64,000 nt of DNA, from sequence record PZ386969.1. The stretch is one strand, 5' to 3'. The position numbers were made by a program, and so were the translations under genes. The DNA is from a phage. Shown here piece by piece: positions 35,601 through 56,418 of this stretch (within the stretch, counting starts at the first letter, position 1; every line of letters starts with the position of its first letter). Under the pieces are notes generated by a model, which saw nothing but the letters and a program-made list of their open reading frames with translations, ran no database searches and was not told the DNA's origin.

Positions 35601-38600
35601 TTATGCCAGAGCAATCAAACGGAAATCTTTGAATGACGGCGGTGCTATGCGGTTGCCTCTGACCAGCAGGCGGATCTTCAGGCCAACGAAAGGATTGGTG
35701 CTGTCTACAGTCTTGTCATACTCATATTCGAAGAATGTAGAACCGTCATTGACCAGAGGGGATGTCGGTGCCACAGTTTCCCATGCCACATTATCCATCT
35801 CCTGGCCTGCGCGCAGCAGTTTAACCTGCACAGTCATTGAAGACTGAGAAGGTAGCATCGCGCCGAAGTATTGCTTCAGAGTGGTGCAAGGGTTATCGAA
35901 TCCGATATCCTTGGTCACATAGCTGAACACATCTTCAAACGGATCCACACCGTAGGTGTTGAAGATGATAGTGAAATCATCACCGTCGATCATTGGAGCC
36001 GTGTAGACATTACTCTCGTTGCGAGTCATGGTTGCACGAACCTGGAAGTCGCCCACCTGACGATAGATACCTTCTGTCTCCAGAGACACGTCCGTGTCGG
36101 ATTCGAACTCAACCCAATCAGAGAATGAGTTGGAGGTCGCATCGCGATAGCGGTATTCCAGTTTCAATACAGATCCTTCTAGGGCTGAATTGGTGACGCT
36201 TGCGTAGAACATGTCTACCAAGTAGTTGCCTAGGAAAGAAGCCGCTTCACCACCAATCTGACCGTCGGAGTCGGCGTTGGAACTCAGAACGAATTTGAAC
36301 GTCGTGAACGTCGCATCAGTCACAGTGTGTTGAGCGTTCAGTTGCTCAGGAGTGAAACCGCAACCACCCGTCAACCCAGACAGAGTAACACTTTCACCCG
36401 CAGTCAGGCCATGCCCCGGAGCGTACACAGTAACAGTTGAAGAACCGTTGACACATTTCACGGTGTTCAGACCCAGAGGGCGGATCTTCGGACCGACTTT
36501 AGCATCGAAGGTCACGATGTTTGAACCAGCGGAGAAGTTACAGCGATACACACGGAACTTCATATCGGCAGTCTGGTTTGGAGTCCAGGTCGTACCATTT
36601 GAAGATGTGAAGAACACGCCAGTGTACGGCTGTTTGGCAATGAACTCGTTGGTCAGCAAGTTCTTCTTACCCATCTCTGCGATGTATGCGTTGTAGTCCT
36701 GAGTGTTGGCCAAGAGAACAATCGCGAACTCAGTCTGCGCCTGCAGATACACAGGATAATCAAACTTGAACATCGTCGGCACAGAAGAGTCTGTGGAGAT
36801 GGAAACTTCTGATGGATTCAGAGTCTTACGAGTGACGACAGTCGTCGCTGGCAGACCATTGCTCATCTCACGGATTTCCAGAGTGATCGGGATATCACGG
36901 GACTTGGTAGAGAAGAACACTTCAATACCTTCGATGTATTCGCCGCCGATATTGGTGGCAACCATGAAGGACTGGGCGATAGGATCTTTCCACTTCGCGA
37001 CTTCAACCGTCTCTGTTTTGTTTTCCGTAGACTTGGTCGCAGTGTATCCCAGGACGCGAGTGTTGACATAAGTCTTCTGGATGCCCTGTTTCTTGCCGAA
37101 GGACTTATGAACAGCCTCGGCATTGGTCAGGGTATCATCAGCAGACTTGCTATCCACAGGACTGTCAGTCAGACGGAAGACGTTGTCGCCCGTGTTAAAC
37201 TTGATAGTCTCGTTCTGAGGAACCGCAAACACACCTTTGATGTTGCCGTTGGCATCAGTGTTCAACGCACCACCCAGTACACCACCGTTTGGGGTACAGT
37301 ACGCGCTCACATCACGTCCAGAGAAGAACGGATACACACGAGTGAACGGACGTAGACCTGTGGCTTCGAAGTTGATATTCGTTTTGCGCATGTATGGGAT
37401 TACCTGCGTTTCAACGATCTGCTCGCCAGTCAGGGTAGTGGTCGTCTTGTCGGTGTACGTGTACGTGGTGACGTCACGGGTAGACACAGTCGTGCGGTAG
37501 CGATAGCCCCACCATACACCACCTGCACCATGCGGTTCCCACACACGCTCAGACACAGACACAGTACGCCATGTGCCATACACAGAACCTTCTTTGATCG
37601 CACCACGGGTGTTGATCGTTTCGTTGATCACACGTGGGGTGACATAGTAGTTCTCAAACCAGTAATCAGTAGTCGGGTTCAGCTTCAAGAAGCCTTCCCA
37701 GTTGAACACCGCATACGGGTTCACGTTGATGGTCGTGGTTGCATAGTCCTGGCGGACAGAGATCTCACGGGTGTAGTTGCATACAACCATGCCATCCTGA
37801 ACGTTGTTCCAACCGACTGGCGTCAGGTCAATCGCGTTCTGCTGAACAAACGGGCGTAGGCGACCATTGTCAGTGTCGATTGAACCCACCCAGTCTGCAG
37901 ACAAATCGTCGATCAGACGGAAGTCTTTGAACGGGTCTGCTGCGATACCGTTCTTGAAGCGCGGGTTACCAGTAATTGGATCGAACACCTGTTGTGACAT
38001 CGCCGAGGATTCCAGCTGAGACAGTGAGGTGTAATATTCGACATTGGAGATACGGGTCTCCAGTTTACCGATATCGCGCATCGTGTAGCGGCGGTTGTCG
38101 ATAGTACGAATCTGGATGTCGTCAATGTTGGCCGTGTATGGTGGGATCATCAATTCATACAGGCGCATGCCGTTGTCTGGGATCGCAGGGGAAGCCAGGT
38201 TGTTGGAACTCACACCACGAGCAACGTTGAACACGCCGTTGTCTGCCAGATACACAGCATCAATACGAGGCAGATAGTACTCTGCATCTAGGATGATCGC
38301 GGTGTTCGGACGAACCATGTCCGTGTCAGACGCTCCGCTGGTGATCTTGGGACGGAAATCCAGACTGTCGGCCAATCCATACACAGTACCAGAACTGGAT
38401 GAAACATAGTTCGGGATGTCTGGGTAGTTGATGGACGAATAGGAGTCCGCTGTGAAGAAATCACCAGAGCTGTGAGCGAAATACTGATACACCACCGTGA
38501 ACGTCCCTGAAATGGCTCCTGTGGACGATATGAGGTTAGAAAGGTAGTATGCCGCATCGCGTTGACCACCGTCCAGAGTGAAGTTCGAGGTGACGTCAGC

Positions 38601-40439
38601 GCCATTTGCGTTCTTCACGCTGATCAGCTTGTAACCATCATGGTTCCCAAGTTGTGCGCTGGCCGCCGCAGTAAACGTCACAGTCTCGGTGGCTTCGGTA
38701 ACAGTCTTGGTCTTGATCGTCGCTGTGGTGCGGACCATCAATGCCAACAGGTTGATAGACTGGTTGGCATACCCCGCACCCAGGGAAATCTGCAGTGCTG
38801 AACCAACCGGAGTACCAGCCAGGGACAGTCCCGAAGAGATATCAAACTGAGCTGCAGTGCCATCTGCCTTCGCTGCGGAGTACAGTGAAAACTCAGGGCT
38901 GAAGCTGTAACCCAGAGGAGCAGAGATTGAGCCTGCACCAGCGGCGTTCAACGTGATCTTGTTTGACCGCAGGACGGTGTAGTTGATGTCGATGGTGCCT
39001 GTAGGTGCTAGAGTCTTCACACCAAATACAGGCAGAGGGAAGATCAGGTCAATTGCTGAACTCTGGCTGAACTGATTGGACTCCAGTTCGCAGGAGAACA
39101 TGGTTGTGCCGCTTTCTTCGTATGCAACTTTGGTAACAGTACCCATGTCCCCAGTCACAACCAGGTCGCGCATATACAGACGGAATTCAGTACCGGAGCG
39201 CTCTGCCGAAATCAGCAGGGCGGTGGCCTGCACATCGCTGGATGCGTTCAGGAACTTGTAGCGGATTGTGCGGGAGACAACCGGAACCCCTTTGGAGTTC
39301 TTGGACACCAGATAGTTGCCAGTCGAAACAGCCACAGGGTTGTTGTTCAGGATATCAGTGTCACGGGCTTTGTCAATTATGACCAGCTCTTCGCCGAGGT
39401 TTTCGATACGACGACCACGAACGTAGGAAATGCCTGGCTTCATAACAGCCACGAATTTGCTTTCATCACCACCTTCAGCCGGAGTGTATACGCCACCGTT
39501 GTTGTTCTGTTTCAGATGTTCGCGTAGGTCGATCTGGTGAGTAGAGACGTTGTAGTCACCATTGGTCTCATAGGTACGCTGAGCCATGGCGTCTTCGAGG
39601 ATGTTGTATGTTGACTGGGTGACCATGGACTGAATGCGACCGTCTTTCACCTTCGCCAGTTCGACGAAGTCGGCCACTTCTTCATCATAACCGTAGCGAG
39701 ACAACACGAGGTCGACGCGCAGGCGATGCGCACCAGGGGCTTTAGAGTTCGGAGTACCCTGAGCATTGGAGAACAGACTTTCATCTTCTGCTTCAGTCAC
39801 GATTGTTTCTGTAACTTTGAAGCCAATGCGGTGAGATGTAGAGTTCGATGCGTTGTCTACGATCAAAGTGGTTGGTTCAACATCCAGGAACATACCACGA
39901 ACGAAATAAACACCCTTTGTCATGCGAGCGACAATCGAACCGCCAACAGTATCGGCCACACCATAGCCGACACGGATGAAGTTATCGTTCACGTCATAGG
40001 TGTTGAAGTATAGATTGTCACCAGCTTCGAAACCGTCTGAACTACCACTCTCAGTCATCTCTAAGATGGCATACATTGTATCCGGCTCAGCTGGATAACG
40101 TTCCAAGGACAGGACGCGTGCTTTCGCATTGTTGTCCTTGCCCAGAACATAGAGTTCGGAGATACCTTCCAGATCAGTGAACTCACTACCGCCAGCCAGA
40201 GTGAACTTCATGGACACAGCAGTGTTGGTGATCGTTAGGCCGCCGGGGATAACCATTGAACCGTCTTTGAACAGATGGTTGCCAAGTTTCTCCAGTTGAT
40301 CCTGGAAGATGGTCTGCATCTGGTTCAGTTCACGCGTCTGAACTTTGATAGGTGCCGGACGGAATAGGATGCGCGAAAAACGCTTCTCTGGATTCCAGTC
40401 ATCCCAATATGGGCGGCGGTTGAGGTTCATTTCTTGCAT
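35601..40439 (-). CDS. giant virion structural protein (1612 aa), function unknown
   Basis: Continuous ORF; start moved from TTG 40487 to ATG MQEMNLN with GGAG RBS; late motif ACTAAATATC upstream; Ser/Thr/Asn/Gly-rich. Confidence 0.7.
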   Translation of the reverse strand: MQEMNLNRRPYWDDWNPEKRFSRILFRPAPIKVQTRELNQMQTIFQDQLEKLGNHLFKDGSMVIPGGLTITNTAVSMKFTLAGGSEFTDLEGISELYVLGKDNNAKARVLSLERYPAEPDTMYAILEMTESGSSDGFEAGDNLYFNTYDVNDNFIRVGYGVADTVGGSIVARMTKGVYFVRGMFLDVEPTTLIVDNASNSTSHRIGFKVTETIVTEAEDESLFSNAQGTPNSKAPGAHRLRVDLVLSRYGYDEEVADFVELAKVKDGRIQSMVTQSTYNILEDAMAQRTYETNGDYNVSTHQIDLREHLKQNNNGGVYTPAEGGDESKFVAVMKPGISYVRGRRIENLGEELVIIDKARDTDILNNNPVAVSTGNYLVSKNSKGVPVVSRTIRYKFLNASSDVQATALLISAERSGTEFRLYMRDLVVTGDMGTVTKVAYEESGTTMFSCELESNQFSQSSAIDLIFPLPVFGVKTLAPTGTIDINYTVLRSNKITLNAAGAGSISAPLGYSFSPEFSLYSAAKADGTAAQFDISSGLSLAGTPVGSALQISLGAGYANQSINLLALMVRTTATIKTKTVTEATETVTFTAAASAQLGNHDGYKLISVKNANGADVTSNFTLDGGQRDAAYYLSNLISSTGAISGTFTVVYQYFAHSSGDFFTADSYSSINYPDIPNYVSSSSGTVYGLADSLDFRPKITSGASDTDMVRPNTAIILDAEYYLPRIDAVYLADNGVFNVARGVSSNNLASPAIPDNGMRLYELMIPPYTANIDDIQIRTIDNRRYTMRDIGKLETRISNVEYYTSLSQLESSAMSQQVFDPITGNPRFKNGIAADPFKDFRLIDDLSADWVGSIDTDNGRLRPFVQQNAIDLTPVGWNNVQDGMVVCNYTREISVRQDYATTTINVNPYAVFNWEGFLKLNPTTDYWFENYYVTPRVINETINTRGAIKEGSVYGTWRTVSVSERVWEPHGAGGVWWGYRYRTTVSTRDVTTYTYTDKTTTTLTGEQIVETQVIPYMRKTNINFEATGLRPFTRVYPFFSGRDVSAYCTPNGGVLGGALNTDANGNIKGVFAVPQNETIKFNTGDNVFRLTDSPVDSKSADDTLTNAEAVHKSFGKKQGIQKTYVNTRVLGYTATKSTENKTETVEVAKWKDPIAQSFMVATNIGGEYIEGIEVFFSTKSRDIPITLEIREMSNGLPATTVVTRKTLNPSEVSISTDSSVPTMFKFDYPVYLQAQTEFAIVLLANTQDYNAYIAEMGKKNLLTNEFIAKQPYTGVFFTSSNGTTWTPNQTADMKFRVYRCNFSAGSNIVTFDAKVGPKIRPLGLNTVKCVNGSSTVTVYAPGHGLTAGESVTLSGLTGGCGFTPEQLNAQHTVTDATFTTFKFVLSSNADSDGQIGGEAASFLGNYLVDMFYASVTNSALEGSVLKLEYRYRDATSNSFSDWVEFESDTDVSLETEGIYRQVGDFQVRATMTRNESNVYTAPMIDGDDFTIIFNTYGVDPFEDVFSYVTKDIGFDNPCTTLKQYFGAMLPSQSSMTVQVKLLRAGQEMDNVAWETVAPTSPLVNDGSTFFEYEYDKTVDSTNPFVGLKIRLLVRGNRIAPPSFKDFRLIALA

Positions 40440-40481
40440 TTTGATGCTCCATCGATAGGTGCCATTATAGAGATATTTAGT

Positions 40482-40492
40482 ATACAACCAAC
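40482..40492 (-). promoter_or_regulatory. late promoter motif ACTAAATATCT upstream of giant structural gene
   Basis: Motif about 45 nt before ATG 40439. Confidence 0.45.
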
Positions 40493-40643
40493 CGAGGAAT
40501 AGAAAGAAATAAGCCCGAAGGGGCTTTGATTATCTTTCTGTGGTTATGGTCATGGATTCGAGACCTCTGCCATTCATGGTAGATGGTATTCAATTAGGTA
40601 TGTTTAATATATCAGGTCAGACTATTACCTTAACTGCTGTATC

Positions 40644-40681
40644 GATTAGGGTAATGCAAACAGTAAACTCTATATAAAAAG
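40644..40681. repeat. 3'-flank repeat shared by tailspike cassettes (copy 1)
   Basis: AGGGTAATGCAAACAGTAAACTCTATATAA aligns with 45503-45535. Confidence 0.55.
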
Positions 40682-40696
40682 TATTATTAATAAGTA

Positions 40697-40727
40697 AAAA
40701 CAACCCCATAGAAGTGGGGTTGTTTTT
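40697..40727 (-). terminator. terminator after tailspike 1
   Basis: Stem CAACCCCA/TGGGGTTG followed by T5. Confidence 0.6.
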
Positions 40728-40740
40728 AAGTGATTATTAC

Positions 40741-42657
40741 TTACATAACAACTGCGGCAGATATGTATCCTGAATCTTGATACGATCCAGAAAGGTCAAA
40801 AACTTCTAAGTTAAAAGAGTCAGGGGATGTACTTACGACATTAATTACTAATTTCCCTCCGCTAGTGGTATTGCCAACACTGCATAAAACAGCATAAGCA
40901 GAGGAGGGCATAGTATTAGATAGGTTGACGGTATATTTACCGGTCCCGGTTTTAGTTACAGTTGCTCCATCCGCATACACTGACGACCCCGAAATTCCAT
41001 TAAAATTGATCATTGCCCGTGTACATGCACTCGACCTTTTTGCGACGGTAGACCCAATAAATGCGTATTCTTGGGCCTTGTTAATATAAATCTTATTAAC
41101 AGAAGTGTCAGGTACTTGTAAGACGTTATCTATAACAACATTACAGGCTGTTGCTCCAGATACGGTAGAGCATCTATCTATCTCATAATTGTCGATATTA
41201 ATAGCCCTTACAAAACCTATACCCCCAAATGCTGACCAGTTTTGTTTAACAAGAACACCGGAAATACCGGACAGGAAAATAAGATCGCCTGTCGTATCTT
41301 TGCTAAACGTGTTGTTGGTTATTGAAACAGAAGAAGAACGCGGTGAGTGACTATCATCTGCAACATATACCCTGGCTAAAGAAGAAGCAGTATTCTCTTC
41401 AAAGTAGTTACCATCTACCAGTAACTGCTGTGCACCCCCGGCGACAACACCTACGTCATAGCCCGTGTTTGCTTCAAATAGAGAGTCTCTGACTATGAAA
41501 TTTCGTACACTACTTGCAGTACCTGAGTCTCCGATAAGAACACCGTTAACACCATCAAAGAAAGTACAATTATCAACTTTAACTACGTTGATATCTACTT
41601 TTGACGTTTTTACACCATTTGCACATTTAGCGAAATAGCATGAAGTTAGCTCAGCCACCCCGGAAAAATAGTCTGGGGCGTCGTAATGTAAATAAACACC
41701 GTACCGGGCGTTTCTGACAACGCAATCTTGAAGTTTTAGGTACCAAGCCCCTCCGAAATCAAAACCATCAGACGATGAGTCCTGAATATCCAAGAAAAGT
41801 CCAGAAATCTTAGCTCCTATCGCACCACCTTGAACCCGAATGGCGGGTGACGCTAACCCGGTAAACTTAATTACTGAACCTGTTGTTTGGTCATTAACAT
41901 GTCCAAAACTATTACCAACAATACATAGACTATCAGTGGCAGTTATGATTAAAGTAGAGCTTATAAGATAAATACCATCCGGTATGTATAAACTCTTTTT
42001 CGAATCTATTGCTGCCTGAAACGCGGCGGTATCATCGGTCACACCGTCGCCAACAGCCCCGAAGTCCTTGACTGACACCAGGTCTTTATTTTTATCATGT
42101 AGTGTTCGCTTAATGGAGTTGGCCAGAGGTGACTTAAATCCGACCAGACCAGCGCCATCATCAGATGCAAGATTGATTCTCAAGGCTGCATCACCAACAC
42201 TAACCCACTTGTCTAACCCAGTACCTCCAGCACTTTCAGGAGTTGAGCCAGAAGAAACGGTTTTAGGTAACTCACCATCCCAGCGATACTTACCTGTTGT
42301 ATGGGTAAGCAATTCATTTTTAACATTAAGTGTAGCACCATTGTCAAACGACCCAGACAATGTAACGTATTCTTCACGAGATACGGCTAATTCCCCAAGA
42401 TCTACGGAACCAGCTGAATGTACAAGTACGGCATTAGTACCAAGACTTACAGCAGTCACCCCCGAACCAATGTCAGCAGGCAAGGAATAGGCACGCTGAG
42501 TAGCCTTATCATAAATTACTTTGTAACCACCTAAGTCTACACCTACAGCAAAGTAGACTACCTCATTCTGTTTAACACCAAACTTACGGGCAATGGCTTG
42601 CTTATTGGTAAGAATACCAGTAGAGCCTTTACCACCTTGTGAGAACATTTCGTTCAT
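40741..42657 (-). CDS. tailspike-like protein 1 (638 aa)
   Basis: Gly/Ser/Thr/Asn-rich repetitive body; N-proximal module shared with the other two spikes; own terminator. Confidence 0.7.
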   Translation of the reverse strand: MNEMFSQGGKGSTGILTNKQAIARKFGVKQNEVVYFAVGVDLGGYKVIYDKATQRAYSLPADIGSGVTAVSLGTNAVLVHSAGSVDLGELAVSREEYVTLSGSFDNGATLNVKNELLTHTTGKYRWDGELPKTVSSGSTPESAGGTGLDKWVSVGDAALRINLASDDGAGLVGFKSPLANSIKRTLHDKNKDLVSVKDFGAVGDGVTDDTAAFQAAIDSKKSLYIPDGIYLISSTLIITATDSLCIVGNSFGHVNDQTTGSVIKFTGLASPAIRVQGGAIGAKISGLFLDIQDSSSDGFDFGGAWYLKLQDCVVRNARYGVYLHYDAPDYFSGVAELTSCYFAKCANGVKTSKVDINVVKVDNCTFFDGVNGVLIGDSGTASSVRNFIVRDSLFEANTGYDVGVVAGGAQQLLVDGNYFEENTASSLARVYVADDSHSPRSSSVSITNNTFSKDTTGDLIFLSGISGVLVKQNWSAFGGIGFVRAINIDNYEIDRCSTVSGATACNVVIDNVLQVPDTSVNKIYINKAQEYAFIGSTVAKRSSACTRAMINFNGISGSSVYADGATVTKTGTGKYTVNLSNTMPSSAYAVLCSVGNTTSGGKLVINVVSTSPDSFNLEVFDLSGSYQDSGYISAAVVM

Positions 42658-42681
42658 AACGACCTCTTTGTTTTTCTAAGA

Positions 42682-42705
42682 AACCCCGCCGAAGCGGGGT
42701 TAGTT
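42682..42705 (-). terminator. terminator after tailspike 2
   Basis: AACCCCGCCGAAGCGGGGTT, same sequence as at 19981 and 27703. Confidence 0.6.
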
Positions 42706-45210
42706 TTACGAGTAAGCACTCTCGAACTTACAAAACCAGGTTGCTCCTTCATCAGTTGTTGACAACCTAAAAACTTGTGTTCCAGCTGCTGTCAAAGATG
42801 GGGTATTGCTTGCTAATTTAACATTTGCACCAAATGTTATTGTTTTAGATGTTGTTGAACAGACAGCCAAAAGAACCTCAACATAACCAATTAGTGTATT
42901 TGTTAATACTGCTGGAGTTATTGTTACATCTCCTGTAACTGTAGCTGCGATGTAAGATGCGTCTGAAAAGTCAGGCGCATAACTTGCTGTTGGCGTCTCG
43001 AACTTTGGATTTCTTACCAATACAGGAACTCCAACATTTTTCCTGAAAATTGTACTATTGCAAACCATATCATACTCTATACCAACAAAATTCTTAGCTG
43101 CAAGTATGTTAGTAAATGTCTGGTCCGCAGAGTAAATATGAGTTATCAGCCTTGCCACCCATGCTGGTGAGTTTGAGTTTTCACACTCAATGAATGAACA
43201 GTTGATACTACCAACGGCGAATGGCATTAGTGATGCCGTATATGAAGATAGCCCTGCGTCATTAAACGCATTCATATTCACAAACGTCTGGCATTGAGAG
43301 AACGTATTACCGGTGGCTCCACCATCAATAAAAAAGCCAATCCCGCCGTTAATATAACCATCTACAGGATCTAAATTAGCTTTCGCGTAGTCCCATTTTG
43401 ATGGAGAATCTGCAAAACATTGATTGAAGGAATTGTTTATTGAGTTCTGTACAACAAAGCAGCATTTCATCCTTGAGTTCTGGTCAGTGACTGTATCGTC
43501 ATACATGCCCCAGTTGTGCACCTTACTAATTCTGTTATTGCCACCACCACGAACCCAGGTACCAAATCGGAAATAACGACCTTCACCCATACTAACCTGA
43601 TGATCGCTACCTTCAACAATGTGGGCTGTGCTGAGTGGATTAGTTGGTTTTAATACACCAACAGCATAAAACTTCAATAGGTGCACACCCATACCGCCAG
43701 CAATATGGATGCCATGACCATCAATATTGGCTACGTAAATGCCATCTAACTTGTTGGCATAACCATCAGATATTTTAAATCCATTAACAGTTTTTGCACG
43801 GGCATCAATTAAAAGATTGCTAATGTGCCCAGCGTATTGATTACCTGTACCTTTATCACACTTTACAGCATAACCAGATGAGTCTGCTATGAAGTCATCT
43901 GTCAGGTATACCCCACCGAAACCAGCATCAATGCTAACATCTCCGTGAATGTGTAGTGTCGTACTGATAGGATATTTCTTCCCATTCAGCCTGATAACTT
44001 TGCTTACAGTGTTAGGTTGTAGCCAGTCAGGATGGTTAGCAGCACTACTTGGTGCATGTTCTAAACCTGTTAAAGCTGCCGCAGCATCAATCGCATCCTG
44101 TAATGATGGATACATATCCGGGTTGACATTTATAATTTTCTTAAGCGCATTGCCAACAGTACCAGTTTCGTAATCAATTGACTTATCAAAACCTGAAAAA
44201 CCTGCTCCTGTAGGTTTAGCCAATTCTGACTTCAATGAAGCATCACCAACACTAACCCATGCACCTGTTCCAACACCACCGGTTGATGTAGTGGTTGAGT
44301 CAGCGGGGACAACTTTAGGTAGTGCACCCTCCCACGTATAGCACTGACCACCAGCGATGTGCCAAACAGCATCCGTTTCACTATTAACTGTTGCACCTTC
44401 TTCAAAGCTACCAGCAACGAGAGATAAACCTGCTTCTGCAAGTAAACGTCTCCACAATTCTCTGGTATTCGACTCTTGATGAGTAGGTAACAAAGTAACA
44501 GTAATATTACCTGGATTGTACGTTAACTGCCCATTACTAACGGATGAGATGTATATGTTAGAGGGTAATGAAGGTAACCCATATGACTTCTGCTCACTAA
44601 CAGAGTAGACAATCTTTTTACCATTCAATAATTGCGTAGTGTCAGTGCTAAGAATTACTTCACTGTCCTTAACGTTAGTTGCACGAGCGATTTCTTGAAT
44701 ACTTCGGTCAAACAACGGACTGATATTCGGTTGTTTAACAGACATTTCAGCGACTACCCAAACGCCTGCAGTCAGCGCAGTTTGTAAAGACACTTTCCCT
44801 GTCGTGCTGTCATAGGAATATTCAATTTCGGGTGTTTTGTACTCACCACCGATATAAAGAGATTGGACTCCATAATATGTGTAATCAGGAGTGAACTCGG
44901 TTTCACCTCCTATAGCCTGAAACTTATAGATTCGAACCCCGGTTTTATAATCTTCTGGAGACAGAATCTTATCAAACAGACAGAACACAACGTCACCTTT
45001 GGATAATGCGCGTCCGAGATTCAACGTATTTCCATCGATTTCAAAGTTGTCTAACGGAACTTGCATGCCACCGTTGATTGTGACTATACCAGTGACAGGG
45101 TAGAAAGGGAGGGAGATAAACTTCTCTCCACCCGTTGCTGTGTAAGTGTATGGAATCTGGTGCGGAGCTGTTACGACCGCTCCAAAGATGCTCTCGACGT
45201 TTCTGGTCAT
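42706..45210 (-). CDS. tailspike-like protein 2 (834 aa)
   Basis: Shared NVKD[ST]EV ... GGVGxGAW.SVGDA module; start moved to ATG MTRNVE after a late-promoter hairpin. Confidence 0.7.
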   Translation of the reverse strand: MTRNVESIFGAVVTAPHQIPYTYTATGGEKFISLPFYPVTGIVTINGGMQVPLDNFEIDGNTLNLGRALSKGDVVFCLFDKILSPEDYKTGVRIYKFQAIGGETEFTPDYTYYGVQSLYIGGEYKTPEIEYSYDSTTGKVSLQTALTAGVWVVAEMSVKQPNISPLFDRSIQEIARATNVKDSEVILSTDTTQLLNGKKIVYSVSEQKSYGLPSLPSNIYISSVSNGQLTYNPGNITVTLLPTHQESNTRELWRRLLAEAGLSLVAGSFEEGATVNSETDAVWHIAGGQCYTWEGALPKVVPADSTTTSTGGVGTGAWVSVGDASLKSELAKPTGAGFSGFDKSIDYETGTVGNALKKIINVNPDMYPSLQDAIDAAAALTGLEHAPSSAANHPDWLQPNTVSKVIRLNGKKYPISTTLHIHGDVSIDAGFGGVYLTDDFIADSSGYAVKCDKGTGNQYAGHISNLLIDARAKTVNGFKISDGYANKLDGIYVANIDGHGIHIAGGMGVHLLKFYAVGVLKPTNPLSTAHIVEGSDHQVSMGEGRYFRFGTWVRGGGNNRISKVHNWGMYDDTVTDQNSRMKCCFVVQNSINNSFNQCFADSPSKWDYAKANLDPVDGYINGGIGFFIDGGATGNTFSQCQTFVNMNAFNDAGLSSYTASLMPFAVGSINCSFIECENSNSPAWVARLITHIYSADQTFTNILAAKNFVGIEYDMVCNSTIFRKNVGVPVLVRNPKFETPTASYAPDFSDASYIAATVTGDVTITPAVLTNTLIGYVEVLLAVCSTTSKTITFGANVKLASNTPSLTAAGTQVFRLSTTDEGATWFCKFESAYS

Positions 45211-45216
45211 TTGAAG

Positions 45217-45253
45217 ATACCCCATAGAGGATTTGCCAATATGGGGTATTTAG
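45217..45253 (-). promoter_or_regulatory. late promoter CTAAATACCCCAT as 5' arm of hairpin; 3' arm ATGGGGTAT 6 nt before ATG 45210
   Basis: Inverted repeat ATACCCCAT / ATGGGGTAT with 15-nt loop. Confidence 0.55.
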
Positions 45254-45290
45254 TCTGAACTAATAAATTTATGAACAAAGGTATAACAAG

Positions 45291-45314
45291 AACCCCGCCA
45301 AAGCGGGGTTTGAC
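45291..45314 (-). terminator. terminator
   Basis: AACCCCGCCAAAGCGGGGTT followed by TG-rich tract. Confidence 0.5.
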
Positions 45315-45318
45315 ACTC

Positions 45319-45474
45319 CTATTCCAGACACATTTCAAAATGTATACCAACATCACCCCACCCATCATAAACAGACGACCCCGATATTCTTGATCCATCT
45401 ATGTTGGCGAAATAAAAATACGCTGACCCATCATTGATATCACCTATAAAGTTCTTATACCCGTTTGATGACAA
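45319..45474 (-). pseudogene. possible remnant of a tailspike C-terminus (51 codons, TTG start only)
   Basis: Frame reads ...ANIDGSRISGSSVYDGWGDVGIHFEMCLE stop, resembling the C-terminal end of spike 1; lies between a 3'-flank repeat and a terminator. Confidence 0.3.
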
Positions 45475-45490
45475 CCCGAGAGAGAGCCAA

Positions 45491-45540
45491 CAGCATTATC
45501 AATCAGGGTAATGAAAACAGTAAACTCTATATAATAAAAG
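45491..45540. repeat. 3'-flank repeat shared by tailspike cassettes (copy 2)
   Basis: AGGGTAATGAAAACAGTAAACTCTATATAA. Confidence 0.55.
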
Positions 45541-45562
45541 CCCCCAAAATTGGGGGCTTTTT
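45536..45562 (-). terminator. terminator after tailspike 3
   Basis: Stem AGCCCCC/GGGGGCT flanked by A/T runs. Confidence 0.6.
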
Positions 45563-45568
45563 ATTATA

Positions 45569-48500
45569 CTACCAGTAATACCAATCACCTTTTTTACTTC
45601 TGACTAGAATAGAACAATCGGTAACAGCTACTGTAGACACCCCACCAATCCTTATCTCATACAGTTTACTAGGCAATCTTTTCTTAGTTAGAGAGACTTT
45701 AAAATCTGTACCAGTTACAGTGATATATTCCGTCCCATCCTCACTATCTATCTGTAAATCTAGGCCGCTGGGACTTGCTGGGAGCTTAACATAAAGCTGT
45801 TGTTCTGCTGTACTACCAGCAAAATGACCGATAACTGTAGATGTCCACTCACTTAAAGTCAACCCTGAACGCACAAAGTCTACATTGAGCGGTTCCTTAA
45901 TAAGTGCAGCAGGTGCATTGTAATTATGCCCGTTAAGTACATAGTAGTTGCTGCTACCAACCTCTACTGTGTCTGCTGTGCAGTAAGAGTGGAAGGTTTT
46001 TGCGTTATCAAAGCGATATAGACTTCTGATTAGCACACGCTCTTGATTGCTTCTGGTTAAAATGCCACAACCTGCGGAAAGGTGGAGTGTGGAGATGGTA
46101 AGCGTATGACTTTCACTGTTGGCCTTGGATGACAGCAATGACACCTTGGGTTCACCCTCTTGAGTAAAGTCTTTACTATTACCCTCACAGTACATGACCC
46201 CAATGTCCCACGCAGCAGGGTCCATTGTTACTACCCCAGCACCTGCCGTATTCTCAGAGCAAATCACACCAACACTGGTAGACAAACCACGACCTAAGAT
46301 AATACCAGCACCTATTGTATATTTACTCGCATCATCCGTGATTGGGTCATAACCTAGTCCCGTAGACTTATCAGTACCCCATGCACTAATGTGAGGGAAG
46401 TGTGTAGCATTCACATAGGTATCCCCTTGCTCACCTTCTGTTGAATAACCTAATGCCATACCCCTTGCACAGTTGTTTGCATGGAGAGTGCCCATTTGAA
46501 AATACCAGCAAGCAAACATTACAATGCCATATCTATTAGCATTATATGCATAGATGCTACCCATCTCAGATTCTGCACACAGAAGACGTGCATAAAAACC
46601 ATATGATGCAATATCTGCACAGTCTACGTTTAAGCTACCGATTAAGCGTAATCCTCGCACTTGATTCTCTGTATTAGCCACATCCACTGTTGCTGTACCG
46701 ACAGGAAATTTACTAACGCGTACAACAGCTTTTAACGTAGGCCATACGGAGCCAATTGCTTTAATTGTTGCCCCGTTTAGATTCCCACGTAAGTAAGAAG
46801 GTATAACAACCTCATCCGTTACGTGGTAGGTAGAATTCCCATTCAGATTTAATGTACCTGTGGCTATAGCTAGTTTTATAGCAGGTAAACAGTCAAAACT
46901 AGGGTCATTGGGGATTGCACCAAAATTCTCAGGTGAGTGTTCATTAAACCCTGTTAGCTTACCAACGTTAGTCCAAGAAGAGTCTGGGGCAGCACCATAA
47001 CTAACAGGTAGTGTCCCATTGTACTTGTACCAGAACCCATCTGAATGTAGAACAACCTGATATTTATCGGATACATTCCCACCATCACCGAATACACCGC
47101 TCTTTTTGTAAAGAGACAGACTACCGGAATCAATAAGAGAAGAACCTTTCCAGGAGGCTAAACGTTGCTCTAATCCAACAACACCAACTACAAGCCATGC
47201 CCCTGGACCAACACCTCCTGTACCCAATGGGGTAGATTCTGGAGGGACTACTTTGGGTACAGAACCATCCCAACGATATTTAATATCGTTACTCACAACC
47301 AACTCATTCTTGGTATTAACAGTTACACCTGTATCGAATGAACCAGGTAAGGTCACATACTCCTCACGAGATACGGCTAATGCGCCCAGATCAACACTAC
47401 CAGCAGAATGCACAAGTACAGCCGAAGAACTAAGGCTGACTGCCGTGGTTCCAGTCGGTAGCTCTGGAATAAAATATGATCTCTGTGTTACTTTATCATA
47501 GATAACTTTATACCCGCTTAGCACAGCACCAACACTAAAATAAACGACCTCTGTATCTTTAACATTGGTTACACGAGCCACTTCCCGCAAAGTATGATCA
47601 ATTTGATTATAGATGTTTGGTGTTCCATTGATAATTACAACAACTTCATCTTCTGGTTCCAGTTCTTGCGCCAGAGTGATTTTACTGGTTAATGGATCGA
47701 ATGTGAATCCCAGATTTTTATACTGACGACTTCCGTTTATATCAATGGCCGGAACATCATCAACAACGACGTCCAACGTGATTTCGGTTTCACCGCCAAT
47801 CGCTGAACCCCCATTATAGACCCAAGTAATCGTAGAAGAACTAGAACCACCGCCATTACCCAATTGAATAGGAGTATATTCAATCACCTGAAGTTCTGTG
47901 CTGGCTGGCAAAGAAGGACTGAAAGTGATTACATTCCCATCTAGTGAATATTTGGATTCCGCAAGGCGTTTTCCGTCAGCATACACGTCCACGATTGTTG
48001 GTGGAGTATTGAGAGTGACAGTACTTGTTTCAGACGCCAAAATTTTTGTAAAGATTTCACGACTGTAGACACGGCCTTGGCCAAGACCGACGCCGGATGT
48101 AATAATCCAACCTTGTTCAGGTCCAGACCAAGTGAACGTTGCTGATACGTTATCAGTTGTTATAGCCATGTCTTCAGTGGAGCCATACAAATTATTTCCA
48201 GAAGGAGACACGGTCAATGGGTAAGTGGCAAATTTCCCATAAGCATCACAAATAGTAACGGAATCCCCAATACGCGTAGGGGAAGGGAGAACCACTGTAG
48301 ATGCCCCTGTGGTATTATTAATGAGATAGCCTCGCCCTTCAGTGAGCGTTGCCGTAGAGGCATGCGGAAGGACTTCCCAGCGGATGCCACCGCCACCCAG
48401 CGGCAACCAACCACCATTTTCGTAATAACCTTCGAATTCGTCGGAGTCGGCATTGTAGCGAACGGAAGACGGGAGTCCTGCGCTGGCATTACCCTCGGGT

Positions 48501-48622
48501 AAAGTCAGGACAGCATCTGGTCCATGCTCAATCGTACCCGTGTTGAGGACACCAGCCAAAGTAGACTGCTCTTCAGCCGCCAGACCGAGAGGGAAAACAG
48601 GCTGTGTTGGTTTATTAGCCAT
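45569..48622 (-). CDS. tailspike-like protein 3 (1017 aa) with extended N-terminal region
   Basis: Shared module in mid-protein; start moved to ATG MANKPTQ after a late-promoter hairpin. Confidence 0.7.
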   Translation of the reverse strand: MANKPTQPVFPLGLAAEEQSTLAGVLNTGTIEHGPDAVLTLPEGNASAGLPSSVRYNADSDEFEGYYENGGWLPLGGGGIRWEVLPHASTATLTEGRGYLINNTTGASTVVLPSPTRIGDSVTICDAYGKFATYPLTVSPSGNNLYGSTEDMAITTDNVSATFTWSGPEQGWIITSGVGLGQGRVYSREIFTKILASETSTVTLNTPPTIVDVYADGKRLAESKYSLDGNVITFSPSLPASTELQVIEYTPIQLGNGGGSSSSTITWVYNGGSAIGGETEITLDVVVDDVPAIDINGSRQYKNLGFTFDPLTSKITLAQELEPEDEVVVIINGTPNIYNQIDHTLREVARVTNVKDTEVVYFSVGAVLSGYKVIYDKVTQRSYFIPELPTGTTAVSLSSSAVLVHSAGSVDLGALAVSREEYVTLPGSFDTGVTVNTKNELVVSNDIKYRWDGSVPKVVPPESTPLGTGGVGPGAWLVVGVVGLEQRLASWKGSSLIDSGSLSLYKKSGVFGDGGNVSDKYQVVLHSDGFWYKYNGTLPVSYGAAPDSSWTNVGKLTGFNEHSPENFGAIPNDPSFDCLPAIKLAIATGTLNLNGNSTYHVTDEVVIPSYLRGNLNGATIKAIGSVWPTLKAVVRVSKFPVGTATVDVANTENQVRGLRLIGSLNVDCADIASYGFYARLLCAESEMGSIYAYNANRYGIVMFACWYFQMGTLHANNCARGMALGYSTEGEQGDTYVNATHFPHISAWGTDKSTGLGYDPITDDASKYTIGAGIILGRGLSTSVGVICSENTAGAGVVTMDPAAWDIGVMYCEGNSKDFTQEGEPKVSLLSSKANSESHTLTISTLHLSAGCGILTRSNQERVLIRSLYRFDNAKTFHSYCTADTVEVGSSNYYVLNGHNYNAPAALIKEPLNVDFVRSGLTLSEWTSTVIGHFAGSTAEQQLYVKLPASPSGLDLQIDSEDGTEYITVTGTDFKVSLTKKRLPSKLYEIRIGGVSTVAVTDCSILVRSKKGDWYYW

Positions 48623-48625
48623 TTC

Positions 48626-48666
48626 AAATACCCCTAAATGTGTTCGTTTCATCTAGGGGTATTTAG
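48626..48666 (-). promoter_or_regulatory. late promoter CTAAATACCCCTA as 5' arm of hairpin; 3' arm TAGGGGTATTT 3 nt before ATG 48622
   Basis: Inverted repeat AAATACCCCTA / TAGGGGTATTT with 17-nt loop. Confidence 0.55.
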
Positions 48667-55444: not shown

Positions 55445-55521
55445 GGTCCTGTAGCTCAGTCGGTTAGAGCAGTGAACTCATAATTCATTGGTCATTGGTT
55501 CAAACCCAATCAGGATCACCA
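55445..55521 (+). tRNA. tRNA-Met (CAU)
   Basis: Manual cloverleaf: acceptor GGTCCTG/CAGGATC, D-arm GCTC-AGTCGGTTA-GAGC, anticodon loop CTCATAA, T-arm ATTGG-TTCAAAC-CCAAT, encoded CCA. Confidence 0.8.
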
Positions 55522-55655
55522 TATTGAGGGGCGATAGTTTAATGGATAGCTGTCCGGACAGTGAATCCTCATAGAGAACGGCTGGGCGGCCAAACCCAGC
55601 AGGTGAGGTGAAAAGCCTCAGACCCCGCCAATACAGTTTGTTGTAAAATAAATGT

Positions 55656-55683
55656 TTGTTCAATAAACTTTATATGGTATAGT
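55656..55683 (+). promoter_or_regulatory. sigma70-like promoter TTGTTC-N16-TATAGT upstream of tRNA-Asn
   Basis: -10 ends 9 nt before tRNA 5' end. Confidence 0.4.
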
Positions 55684-55692
55684 GATTTGCAA

Positions 55693-55768
55693 GACGATGT
55701 AGTTCAGTCGGTAGAACGGCGGTCTGTTAAACCGTATGTCGCAGGTTCAAGTCCTGCCATCGTCGCCA
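55693..55768 (+). tRNA. tRNA-Asn (GUU)
   Basis: Acceptor GACGATG/CATCGTC, anticodon loop CTGTTAA, T-arm GCAGG-TTCAAGT-CCTGC, encoded CCA. Confidence 0.8.
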
Positions 55769-56025
55769 GACAATGGGTGTGAACGAAAGTGAATAGGCAT
55801 AAAGTACGCGACCGACAAGCTCCAAGCCTCTGTCCAATAGCCGAACGGAATCCGAAGACGACGATAGTAGCGCCCACCAAATTCAGAGTGTAGAGGCTAC
55901 AGTAGTGCGCACCTCACGGGTTGCTACACCGGACACTCTGATACAAATCTACCGCCGCGTGGATTAGCTGAGGAAGGATGGCCGATGTCCTCGAGCGTGG
56001 CCCAGCACGCAGCGGCAGACCAAAT

Positions 56026-56109
56026 GTGAGTGTGGCAGAGCGGTCGAATGCAGGAGACTGTAAATCTCCCCGTAACAGCGCGGTGGTTCGAATCCATCCA
56101 CTCACACCA
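56026..56109 (+). tRNA. tRNA-Tyr (GUA), long variable arm
   Basis: Acceptor GTGAGTG/CACTCAC, anticodon loop CTGTAAA, T-arm GGTGG-TTCGAAT-CCATC, encoded CCA. Confidence 0.75.
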
Positions 56110-56329
56110 AACACAGTAAGCGTTGCAGCCAGCTGTGTATAAAATGGGGTGACTCCACATCGGAAACGATGCCCCAACTTCCAGAAATGGTCGGGCGCAA
56201 AGTCTGTAAAGTTCCAGGAGATCGAACCAGAAGGCACTGGTCGCCAGTTAACCAATCGGCGCTGAGAAGCGCGGGGAGTTGGGCTACGGCAGATCAAATG
56301 CTCAATCGGGTGTGAAGCCCGTCCAAATT

Positions 56330-56418
56330 GGAAGGTTGCCCGAGAGGTTTAAGGGACTCGACTGCTAATCGAGTGGGGCTTTTAGCCCCCGAAGGTTCGA
56401 ATCCTTCACCTTCCGCCA
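56330..56418 (+). tRNA. tRNA-Ser (GCU), long variable arm
   Basis: Acceptor GGAAGGT/ACCTTCC, anticodon loop CTGCTAA, variable-arm hairpin GGGGC/GCCCC, T-arm GAAGG-TTCGAAT-CCTTC, encoded CCA. Confidence 0.8.

Follow-up and report, generated by a model that had tools for sequence, protein, structure and literature searches.

What the spacer between two neighbouring tailspike genes consists of, and how it came to be there, is the question raised by phage sequence record PZ386969.1, of which one stretch of 64,000 nucleotides (the window) was analysed. The window belongs to the Ackermannviridae, Agtrevirus type (Aglimvirinae), and its best matches were the Escherichia phages YX22, AV101, A221 and LHE287. 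Its TSP4-like and TSP2-like tailspike genes are separated by 343 nt, in which an earlier sequence-only reading had noticed a decayed tailspike remnant and a repeat shared with the 3′ flank of another spike gene, both taken as footprints of cassette replacement. With a probability of about 80%, this spacer is non-coding debris layered by successive replacements of tailspike receptor modules, and it holds a decayed gene piece on the strand of the spikes and the stump of a podophage gene on the opposite strand. The homologies, truncations, frame disruptions, positions and mosaic identity pattern described below were observed directly.

The first element is a minus-strand frame at 45319-45474, which reads LSSNGYKNFIGDINDGSAYFYFANIDGSRISGSSVYDGWGDVGIHFEMCLE followed by a stop codon and was present as originally quoted, with 51 codons, a TTG start and no ATG; counted from the preceding stop, it comprises 58 open codons. 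A frame of this length (51-58 codons) proves little by itself, and its reality rests on homology. When phmmer was run exhaustively on 1.84 billion cluster representatives, two real relatives of the fragment were found, P0001 and P0003. The match to P0003 had an E value of 2.7e-8 and 63% identity (query 7-55 against P0003 residues 201-250), the Citrobacter relative P0006 was identical at 34 of 48 positions (71%), and the likeness to the P0003 gene was also visible in the DNA alignment. The fragment as delimited by phmmer and DNA alignment spans 45319-45486 (minus strand; clear homology at 45334-45474, stop codon at 45319-45321) and corresponds to residues ~189-249 of the 336-aa relative, which is the end of a carbohydrate-binding-module (CBM) domain and not the end of the protein. 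P0001, from the 2.5-kb metagenome contig L006, represents this same relic, predicted there as an open reading frame (ORF) of 69 aa. The P0001 call (L006 2139-2348; Logan contig SRR33701177_21557) is a composite of both scraps of the spacer, a pseudogene junction in a public protein collection.

The P0003 family is small, with proteins of ~336 aa from E. coli, E. albertii and Citrobacter that carry no Pfam domain. In E. coli P22-like prophages (L007 8001-9011; L008), the family genes start at the last annotated base of the tailspike gene, and the gene immediately before that of P0003 encodes a 550-aa tailspike with a Head_binding and a SASA-esterase domain; the family protein may be another subunit of the spike or its C-terminal part, split off as a separate protein. 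P0003 matched the C-terminal parts of PHROG tail-fibre families (E 1e-16), and tblastn against phages gave distant matches to annotated tail fibres of Stenotrophomonas, Rhizobium and Ralstonia phages (6e-15) and no match in Ackermannviridae or Schitoviridae. The AlphaFold2 model of P0003 (mean predicted local distance difference test score 74) matched CBM4, CBM11, CBM61 and CBM16 beta-sandwiches and, among phage proteins, CBA120 TSP4 and a Klebsiella K2 spike. The predicted architecture is a CBM4-like sandwich followed by a small C-terminal beta domain, and the fragment covers the final strands of this sandwich. Against the spike C-terminus of Bp4 (G7C gp63.1-type), P0003 gave an E value of 3.7e-4 with hmmsearch in a small set, which is suggestive, but a probability of just 6% with hhalign, which does not support the link. 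The tail-fibre matches, the position after a tailspike gene and the model point to a putative receptor-binding-protein gene with a predicted CBM fold as the parent of the fragment. The fragment shares with this family 63-71% amino acid identity over 48 residues, likeness at the DNA level and the end of the predicted sandwich; it differs in that ~60 codons are left in the window, the frame is broken at the 5′ joint and the stop lies at the end of the CBM, whereas the prophage proteins have a further domain of 85 residues.

The remnant proposed from the sequence was recovered as a decayed piece of a probable receptor-binding-protein gene, but not as the C-terminus of an Ackermannviridae spike. 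Searching 50,697 phage records with the fragment by tblastn gave only the copy of the same relic in the non-coding spacer of AV101. Its supposed resemblance to the end of spike 1 (the 638-aa spike, with which it shares ISGSSVY) was at chance level, since 59 of 500 shuffles equalled or exceeded its local score of 37; the scores against the other spikes were reached by 13 of 500 (TSP2) and 330 of 500 (TSP4) shuffles, again at chance level. The fragment as a diverged part of the opposite-strand gene described below was also rejected, since all plus-strand frames contained stops and gave background scores. A word-indexed protein search with the fragment returned only P0001, a back-translated scan of viral contigs showed no relative, and degenerate and exact DNA patterns of the fragment and of the relic-relic joint had no match in viral or metagenome contigs. 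No intact parent or further copy was found in the phage genomes and contigs searched.

The fragment is a decaying pseudogene of a P0003-family gene, truncated, without ATG and frame-broken between copies, because its three known copies differ by indels that are not multiples of three and by a 64-nt deletion, differences incompatible with a coding sequence. The 64-nt deletion is in the AV101 relic, and the L006 relic has two 2-nt deletions, one of them near its 3′ end. The joint to the second relic is a (CT)n run at 45475-45489, as placed by the alignments, where the window has one CT unit more than L006, shifting the frame. In L006 the joint part is in frame, reading AVGSLKLSSNG vs SVGSLSKLVTRFWLSSNG and matching P0003 residues 189-206 with a 7-residue gap. 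A CTGTT pentamer at the joint is common to both parental sequences and is a possible microhomology for the joining.

At the other end, the stop codon of the fragment lies at the end of the modelled CBM domain (~251), and a predicted terminator begins 10 nt later, an arrangement equal to that after the TSP3 stop codon in the Kuttervirus PhiSH19. This stop may plausibly be the native end of the gene, although the prophage relatives run 85 residues further.

The second element is the repeat next to the frame, which indeed recurs downstream of spike 1. Its 29-nt core TATATAGAGTTTACTGTTTKCATTACCCT, with one ambiguous position, was found exactly twice, each time on the minus strand (45505-45533 and 40648-40676), and no further copy was present in the window at ≤3 mismatches (0 expected from 100 shuffles). 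Similarity between the copies reaches ~46 nt (45490-45535 against 40633-40678), with 40 of 46 positions identical as counted from the alignment. Both copies are in direct orientation and outside the spike coding regions, and they mark just two boundaries in the window, TSP4/TSP2 and spike 1/VriC; neither the 48-nt spacer between TSP2 and spike 1 nor the 16-nt spacer upstream of TSP4 has one. Their direct orientation, their place outside the coding regions and their explanation as gene stumps (below) gave no reason to class the copies with dedicated cassette-switching systems such as inversion or shufflon sites or the repeats of diversity-generating retroelements.

The nature of the repeat became apparent from the spike 1/VriC spacer, which in blastn matched ~72-kb N4-like Gamaleyavirus podophages (pSb-1, UE-S5a/b, Bp4, ECBP1 and others) at 84-86%. 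Window positions 40570-40721 matched the 3′ end of pSb-1 gp17 and its downstream sequence with 85.6% identity over 152 nt (E 2e-41). The matched gene encodes 208 aa (218 aa as annotated in Bp4) and is pSb-1 gp17, Bp4 orf14 and the UE-S5b 'tail needle knob', a member of phrog_17779 of unknown function; in pSb-1, UE-S5b and Bp4 it is annotated opposite to the spike genes and converging on them. Repeat copy 2 (40570-40677, plus strand; translation, blastn, tblastn) holds the last 35 codons and the stop of such a gp17/orf14-like gene, ending in PFMVDGIQLGMFNISGQTITLTAVSIRVMQTVNSI, and matched residues 174-208 of pSb-1 gp17 in tblastn with 91% over 35 aa. It is followed at 40678-40728 by the Gamaleyavirus-type spacer AAAGTATTATTAATAAGTAAAAAC, identical to that after pSb-1 gp17, and a bidirectional terminator hairpin (40695-40728; terminator scan) at the donor position. 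Repeat copy 1 (45487-45534, plus strand; translation, tblastn) holds the last ~14-16 codons and the stop, ending in TALSIRVMKTVNSI; its plus-strand reading at 45490-45534 matched residues 195-208, and it retains the stop codon alone before a different terminator. The translations of both copies fit the intact C-terminus ...PFMVDGIQLGM.NISGQ.ITLTAVS.RVMQTVNSI. The assignment of copy 1 is made because it is identical to copy 2 in the core and because AV101 provides an intermediate, in which the copy still runs without a break into the spacer and terminator of Gamaleyavirus, matching pSb-1 over 92 nt with 93.5% identity.

In the tblastn search with gp17, 24 phage records had ≥80% coverage, all of them N4-like (Gamaleyavirus and Salmonella relatives), partial matches with ~70% coverage were observed in Kayfunavirus, Aeromonas and Klebsiella phages, and Ackermannviridae contained C-terminal pieces only. 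These pieces are of several lengths. Stumps of 80-85 codons (residues 129-208, 89-94%) occur in A221, RPN242, PC3, PH4, LHE287 and SKML-39, a stump of 74 codons (residues 135-208) lies downstream of TSP4 in YX22, stumps of 35 codons lie upstream of VriC in CAU_YEP3 (residues 174-208), YX22 and the window, and stumps of 14 codons lie downstream of TSP4-type modules in the window, AV101 and L006. Frameshifts were found in SKML-39 (11 nt) and LHE287 (1 nt and 2 nt). The stump was absent from the sole Kuttervirus cluster examined, that of PhiSH19. When 13 relics and intact genes were aligned, the core of the flank repeat was kept in all of them; the repeat is absent from the two other spike boundaries of the window and from PhiSH19.

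The stumps also keep the downstream sequence of the donor in two allelic forms, both present among intact Gamaleyavirus genes: type I, with the spacer AAAGTATTATTAATAAGTAAAAAC and hairpin as in pSb-1 and UE-S5b and also in the AV101 copy, and type II, with GAAAAGGCCC...GGGCC as in Bp4. Copy 2 of the window is of the first form, and the terminator after copy 1 is type II-like. The two alleles suggest that more than one exchange with donors took place. Because Ackermannviridae hold stumps only, the intact genes are N4-like and PhiSH19 has no stump, we infer that the scrap moved from such phages into Agtrevirus-type phages. The repeat itself is a 3′-end pseudogene scrap of a Gamaleyavirus gp17/orf14-like gene, antisense to the spikes, and no recombination site as such; the region carries cassette-replacement footprints, as had been proposed, but not in the form of a recombination repeat flanking the cassettes. 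Compared with the Gamaleyavirus gene, the stumps are 85-94% identical to its last 35-85 codons, lie convergent on a spike and have the same spacer and terminator alleles; they differ in that the window has only 3′ stumps of 14 and 35 codons, without a start or upstream part, in that other Agtrevirus-type copies are frameshifted, and in that they lie in a myovirus spike cluster and not beside an N4-type gp63 gene.

The rest of the spacer consists of its only likely functional parts, namely two predicted terminators and a conserved block. Terminator 1 (45531-45568, minus strand; RNA fold) is a hairpin AAAAGCCCCCAA..TTGGGGGCTTTT followed by a T-rich tail. This hairpin (45536-45561) was the strongest local hairpin in the RNA fold and was missed by the simple terminator scan, its U-tract extends into the stop codon of the relic on the other strand, and it is similar to the type II terminator that intact orf14-like genes, for instance that of Bp4, have downstream. 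Terminator 2 (45291-45310, minus strand; terminator scan) is AACCCCGCTTTGGCGGGGTT with a T-rich tail. As G+C-rich hairpins with a T-run, the scan flagged 45291-45310 on the minus strand and 40695-40728 on both strands. The hairpin of terminator 2 is the same one that follows the TSP3 stop codon in PhiSH19, and it also ends the spike flank in L006; it is the native terminator of a conserved inter-spike block. This block, 65 nt upstream of TSP2 (45226-45290, minus strand; a 5′ untranslated or promoter region), precedes TSP2 in both AV101 and YX22 and, in AV101, TSP3 as well, and it is found in other Ackermannviridae clusters. Positions 45228-45311 matched 198 phage records, 162 of them at 95-99% identity, often at two sites per genome. 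A perfect 10-bp inverted repeat ATACCCCATA..TATGGGGTAT at 45217-45249 covers the first ATG of TSP2 (45225), and this hairpin is conserved across Ackermannviridae.

The layers can be arranged into a tentative history, in which the order of events and the lack of an own function of the scraps are what we infer. The oldest layer would be the 3′ end of a CBM-type beta-sandwich gene with its own stop, standing upstream of terminator 2 and of the conserved block of the next spike. In a second step, a G7C-like spike module would have replaced the CBM-ending gene through an illegitimate 3′ joint inside the old CBM domain, CT-rich and possibly at CTGTT, and would have dragged in the antisense last ~14 codons of the gp17/orf14-like gene, which in the donor G7C-like phages converges on the tailspike gene with a terminator common to both. 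In a third step, the present TSP4 module, like the gp17 tail fibre of Kayfunavirus, would have arrived together with terminator 1, with its 3′ joint at the stop codon of the stump. Copy 2 would be a longer relic (35 codons) of the same gene, with the donor spacer and the terminator in the donor position. The upstream crossovers would lie in a conserved N-terminal motif, and the downstream crossovers in the scraps or carried along with them. The roles of the scraps may be limited to part of a terminator U-tract and to passive identity usable in later exchanges; no sign of a scrap function was found by promoter scan, Rfam or RNA fold of the spacer.

The identity pattern along the spike genes is mosaic. 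The current receptor-binding module of the TSP4-like spike is its C-terminal 513 aa (45572-47149, minus strand), which is 87-89% identical to the gp17 tail fibre of the T7-like Kayfunavirus phages TM1, EFA-1 and EFA-2, and this homology ends exactly at the stop codon. The records of EFA-1 and EFA-2 are labelled 'Enterococcus phage', and EFA-1 is marked UNVERIFIED_ORG. Terminator 1 is not Kayfunavirus-derived, because the homology ends at the stop codon, and the TM1 tail fibre was rejected as its source. L006, a contig of an As2-like N4-like phage, has the receptor module of the window TSP4 behind a TSP1-type N-terminus, in a spike of 693 aa. Downstream of this spike come terminator 1, the stump of 14 codons, the relic of the CBM gene, terminator 2 and finally a convergent gene that matches Salmonella phage As2 at 97% identity. 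Compared with the window, L006 is 67% identical upstream of ~47416, 94-99% at 47416-46517, 77-79% at 46516-45920, ~60% at 45919-45620 and 86-97% across the flank at 45619-45321. The 5′ identity switch at ~47416 is at the GTTAVSL/TD1 motif, the proposed upstream crossover site of Ackermannviridae tailspikes (PMC8432352). In AV101, the same flank is ~95% identical and stands beside an unrelated TSP4 module.

A comparable pattern was observed at the 638-aa spike. Its N-terminal module and the 48-nt spacer upstream of it form a 5′ homology arm (42177-42706, minus strand; local blastn) 85% identical to pSb-1 (L003 5198-5726) over 530 nt, so that arms ~85% identical to pSb-1 stand on both sides of the spike, this one of 530 nt at the 5′ end and another of 153 nt at the 3′ end. 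The receptor module in between was found only in YX22 (99%) and in the Phapecoctavirus dw-ec (93.5%). In dw-ec, a different myovirus group, the match of module 40744-42180 lies in an unannotated gene (L018 6899-8452; 93.5% as protein, 89% as DNA) and is followed by another spike gene starting MNEMFSQGGKG, with no repeat there. In YX22, TSP4 ends in 877 nt (L002 6327-7203) that match, at 94% identity, the 3′ part of the spike gene annotated as 'endosialidase' in Gamaleyavirus UE-S5b, and the 74-codon gp17-like stump that follows is joined directly to the conserved block, without terminator 2. The pSb-1-like arms and the endosialidase match demonstrate a real and recent exchange with G7C-like phages.

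These arms also speak for a different reading, in which the relic and terminator are kept by selection as a 3′ 'landing pad' that, with TD1 as the 5′ arm, serves double homologous recombination of whole receptor modules between Gamaleyavirus or As2-like podophages and Agtrevirus-type myophages. Besides the 638-aa spike between two arms ~85% identical to pSb-1, it would account for the two terminator alleles common to both families, for the flank that is 95-97% identical in the window, AV101 and L006 beside unrelated or ~60%-identical spike ends, and for the minimal core kept in every relic. However, arms of ~50-150 nt and ~85% identity are poor substrates, and the relics shrink and frameshift, as expected without selection. 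PhiSH19 and the spike/VriC boundary of AV101 lack the element and still swap modules, the modules of dw-ec and Kayfunavirus TM1 end exactly at the stop codon with no common flank, and the conservation between the window and AV101 may be vertical backbone identity. Selection for such a role is considered unlikely. Equally doubtful is the extension of this idea, that the gp17-like stump and terminator are a cross-family 'standard connector' between G7C-like or As2-like podophages and Agtrevirus-type myophages that co-infect E. coli.

Several observations weigh against layered debris as the explanation. The 14-codon gp17 match of copy 1 is weak when taken alone (E ~0.1 in a small database). That the core is kept in all 13 aligned sequences, relics and intact genes alike, might point to some function. 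No intact parent of the fragment was found in any phage genome searched, the nearest genes being the prophage genes at 63-71% that are 85 residues longer, and it could also be an internal piece bounded by two deletions. The composite flank occurs in the As2-like N4-like L006 as well, so that some of the steps may have taken place outside Ackermannviridae; the order of the events and their hosts, myovirus or podovirus, are tentative.

That the fragment is the in-place remains of the phage's own missing third spike (TSP3) is improbable. Most relatives have the order TSP4-TSP3-TSP2-TSP1, only three spikes (TSP4, TSP2, TSP1-type) are encoded in the window and in YX22 vs four in AV101 and PhiSH19, and the fragment occupies the place expected for TSP3. 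The conserved upstream block (45226-45316), which precedes TSP3 and TSP2 in AV101 and is thus present twice there, is single in the window, which fits a loss of TSP3 through recombination between block copies. In AV101, however, the relic is at the same place with an intact TSP3 right after it, which led to the rejection of in-place decay, and in L006 the relic stands in an N4-like context without any TSP3. Because AV101 has both and L006 has the relic without TSP3, the event that removed TSP3 was not the one that gave rise to the fragment.

A regulatory role of the repeat (promoter, small RNA or antisense RNA) or a peptide from either short frame, the minus-strand one of 51 codons or a plus-strand one of 45 codons (40540-40677), is highly improbable: a sigma-70-like TTTACT-18-GATAAT in copy 1, the core conserved in all copies and a spacer that folds somewhat better than shuffles (z = -2.4) are in its favour, but promoter-like sites were below the shuffle expectation (9 found vs 13.7 expected), the -10 position of copy 2 is GATACA, a transcript from copy 1 meets terminator 2 before TSP2, no Rfam family was found in the spacer, the fold signal is accounted for by the two terminator hairpins, and the frames are without ATG and broken in L006, AV101, SKML-39 and LHE287. 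The promoter reading was rejected for the lack of enrichment, the -10 that is not conserved and the terminator downstream, and a reading as a miniature inverted-repeat transposable element was dropped, since the paper that had suggested it does no more than cite the TSP paper.

With regard to the gene context, ORF calls place every gene of the spike region on the minus strand, in the transcription order T4 gp6-like wedge gene, two small structural genes, TSP4-like, TSP2-like, 638-aa spike and VriC; the spikes 3, 2 and 1 of the sequence-only reading are the TSP4-like, the TSP2-like and the 638-aa spike. The TSP4-like gene (45569-48652; ORF) encodes 1027 aa with a Pfam Tail_spike_N match at residues 426-490. 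The TSP2-like gene (42706-45225; ORF and Pfam match) has a second ATG at 45210 (MTRNVESIF...), which is probably its true start; in the PhiSH19 homologue, the annotated start at ATGACCAGAAAT equals this second ATG. The 638-aa spike (40741-42657; ORF and Pfam matches) has a TSP1-type N-terminus and a pectate-lyase-like module, and the VriC-like gene (ORF) lies at 35601-40487.

Novel joints, in which truncated gene pieces stand at module boundaries through illegitimate recombination, are a classic feature of lambdoid and other mosaic phage genomes. The window is like them in that, beside an exchanged module, the remainder of a truncated gene abuts unrelated sequence, with a short possible microhomology at the joint, and it differs in that several layers are stacked in 343 nt and the exchange runs across at least three phage families. 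The finding is thus a well-resolved example of known phage mosaicism, with no new mechanism.

It is well documented that Ackermannviridae swap tailspike modules with one another and also with prophages and with phages of the G7C-like and T7-like groups, and the 5′ crossover motif is documented as well (Sorensen et al. 2021, PMC8432352; 2023, PMC10791037; 2024, PMC11414711). This is consistent with the window, where the 5′ identity switch is at the proposed TD1/GTTAVSL motif, the receptor modules are common to G7C-like phages, Kayfunavirus and Phapecoctavirus, and the natural loss of tsp3 parallels the engineered deletions of Sorensen et al. The window differs in adding a hitchhiked opposite-strand stump and a layered spacer. 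Work on host change in Ackermannviridae centres on the conserved 5′ ends of the spikes, and the 3′ side is undiscussed in PMC8432352, PMC10791037 and PMC11414711; the terms 'intergenic' and 'remnant' are absent from all three, 'pseudogene' from PMC10791037 and 'terminator' from PMC8432352.

The scraps are direct, datable footprints, in that incoming modules came with pieces of the donor's neighbouring gene. They point to a G7C-like podophage as at least one donor lineage and to 3′ joints that were partly illegitimate and later reused, and such relics can serve as markers of the ancestry and direction of spike exchange. For phage engineering, the scrap sequence is probably dispensable, while the terminators and the upstream block should stay. 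For annotation, the small ORFs in the spacer should not be called, as the case of P0001 shows.

Other pieces of this kind were observed in the same region of related phages. In the TSP3/TSP2 spacer of AV101 (L001 3610-3795) lies a further Gamaleyavirus-derived scrap, of which 197 nt are 83-85% identical to the 5′ end of pSb-1 gp16 and the divergent spacer between gp16 and gp17; pSb-1 gp16 is N4 gp63-like, and a 51-aa 'hypothetical protein' is annotated beside the AV101 scrap. SKML-39 (L014 16049-16166) has a piece similar to this gp16-type scrap. Elsewhere in the window, a cluster of four tRNA genes was located on the plus strand at 55445-56415.

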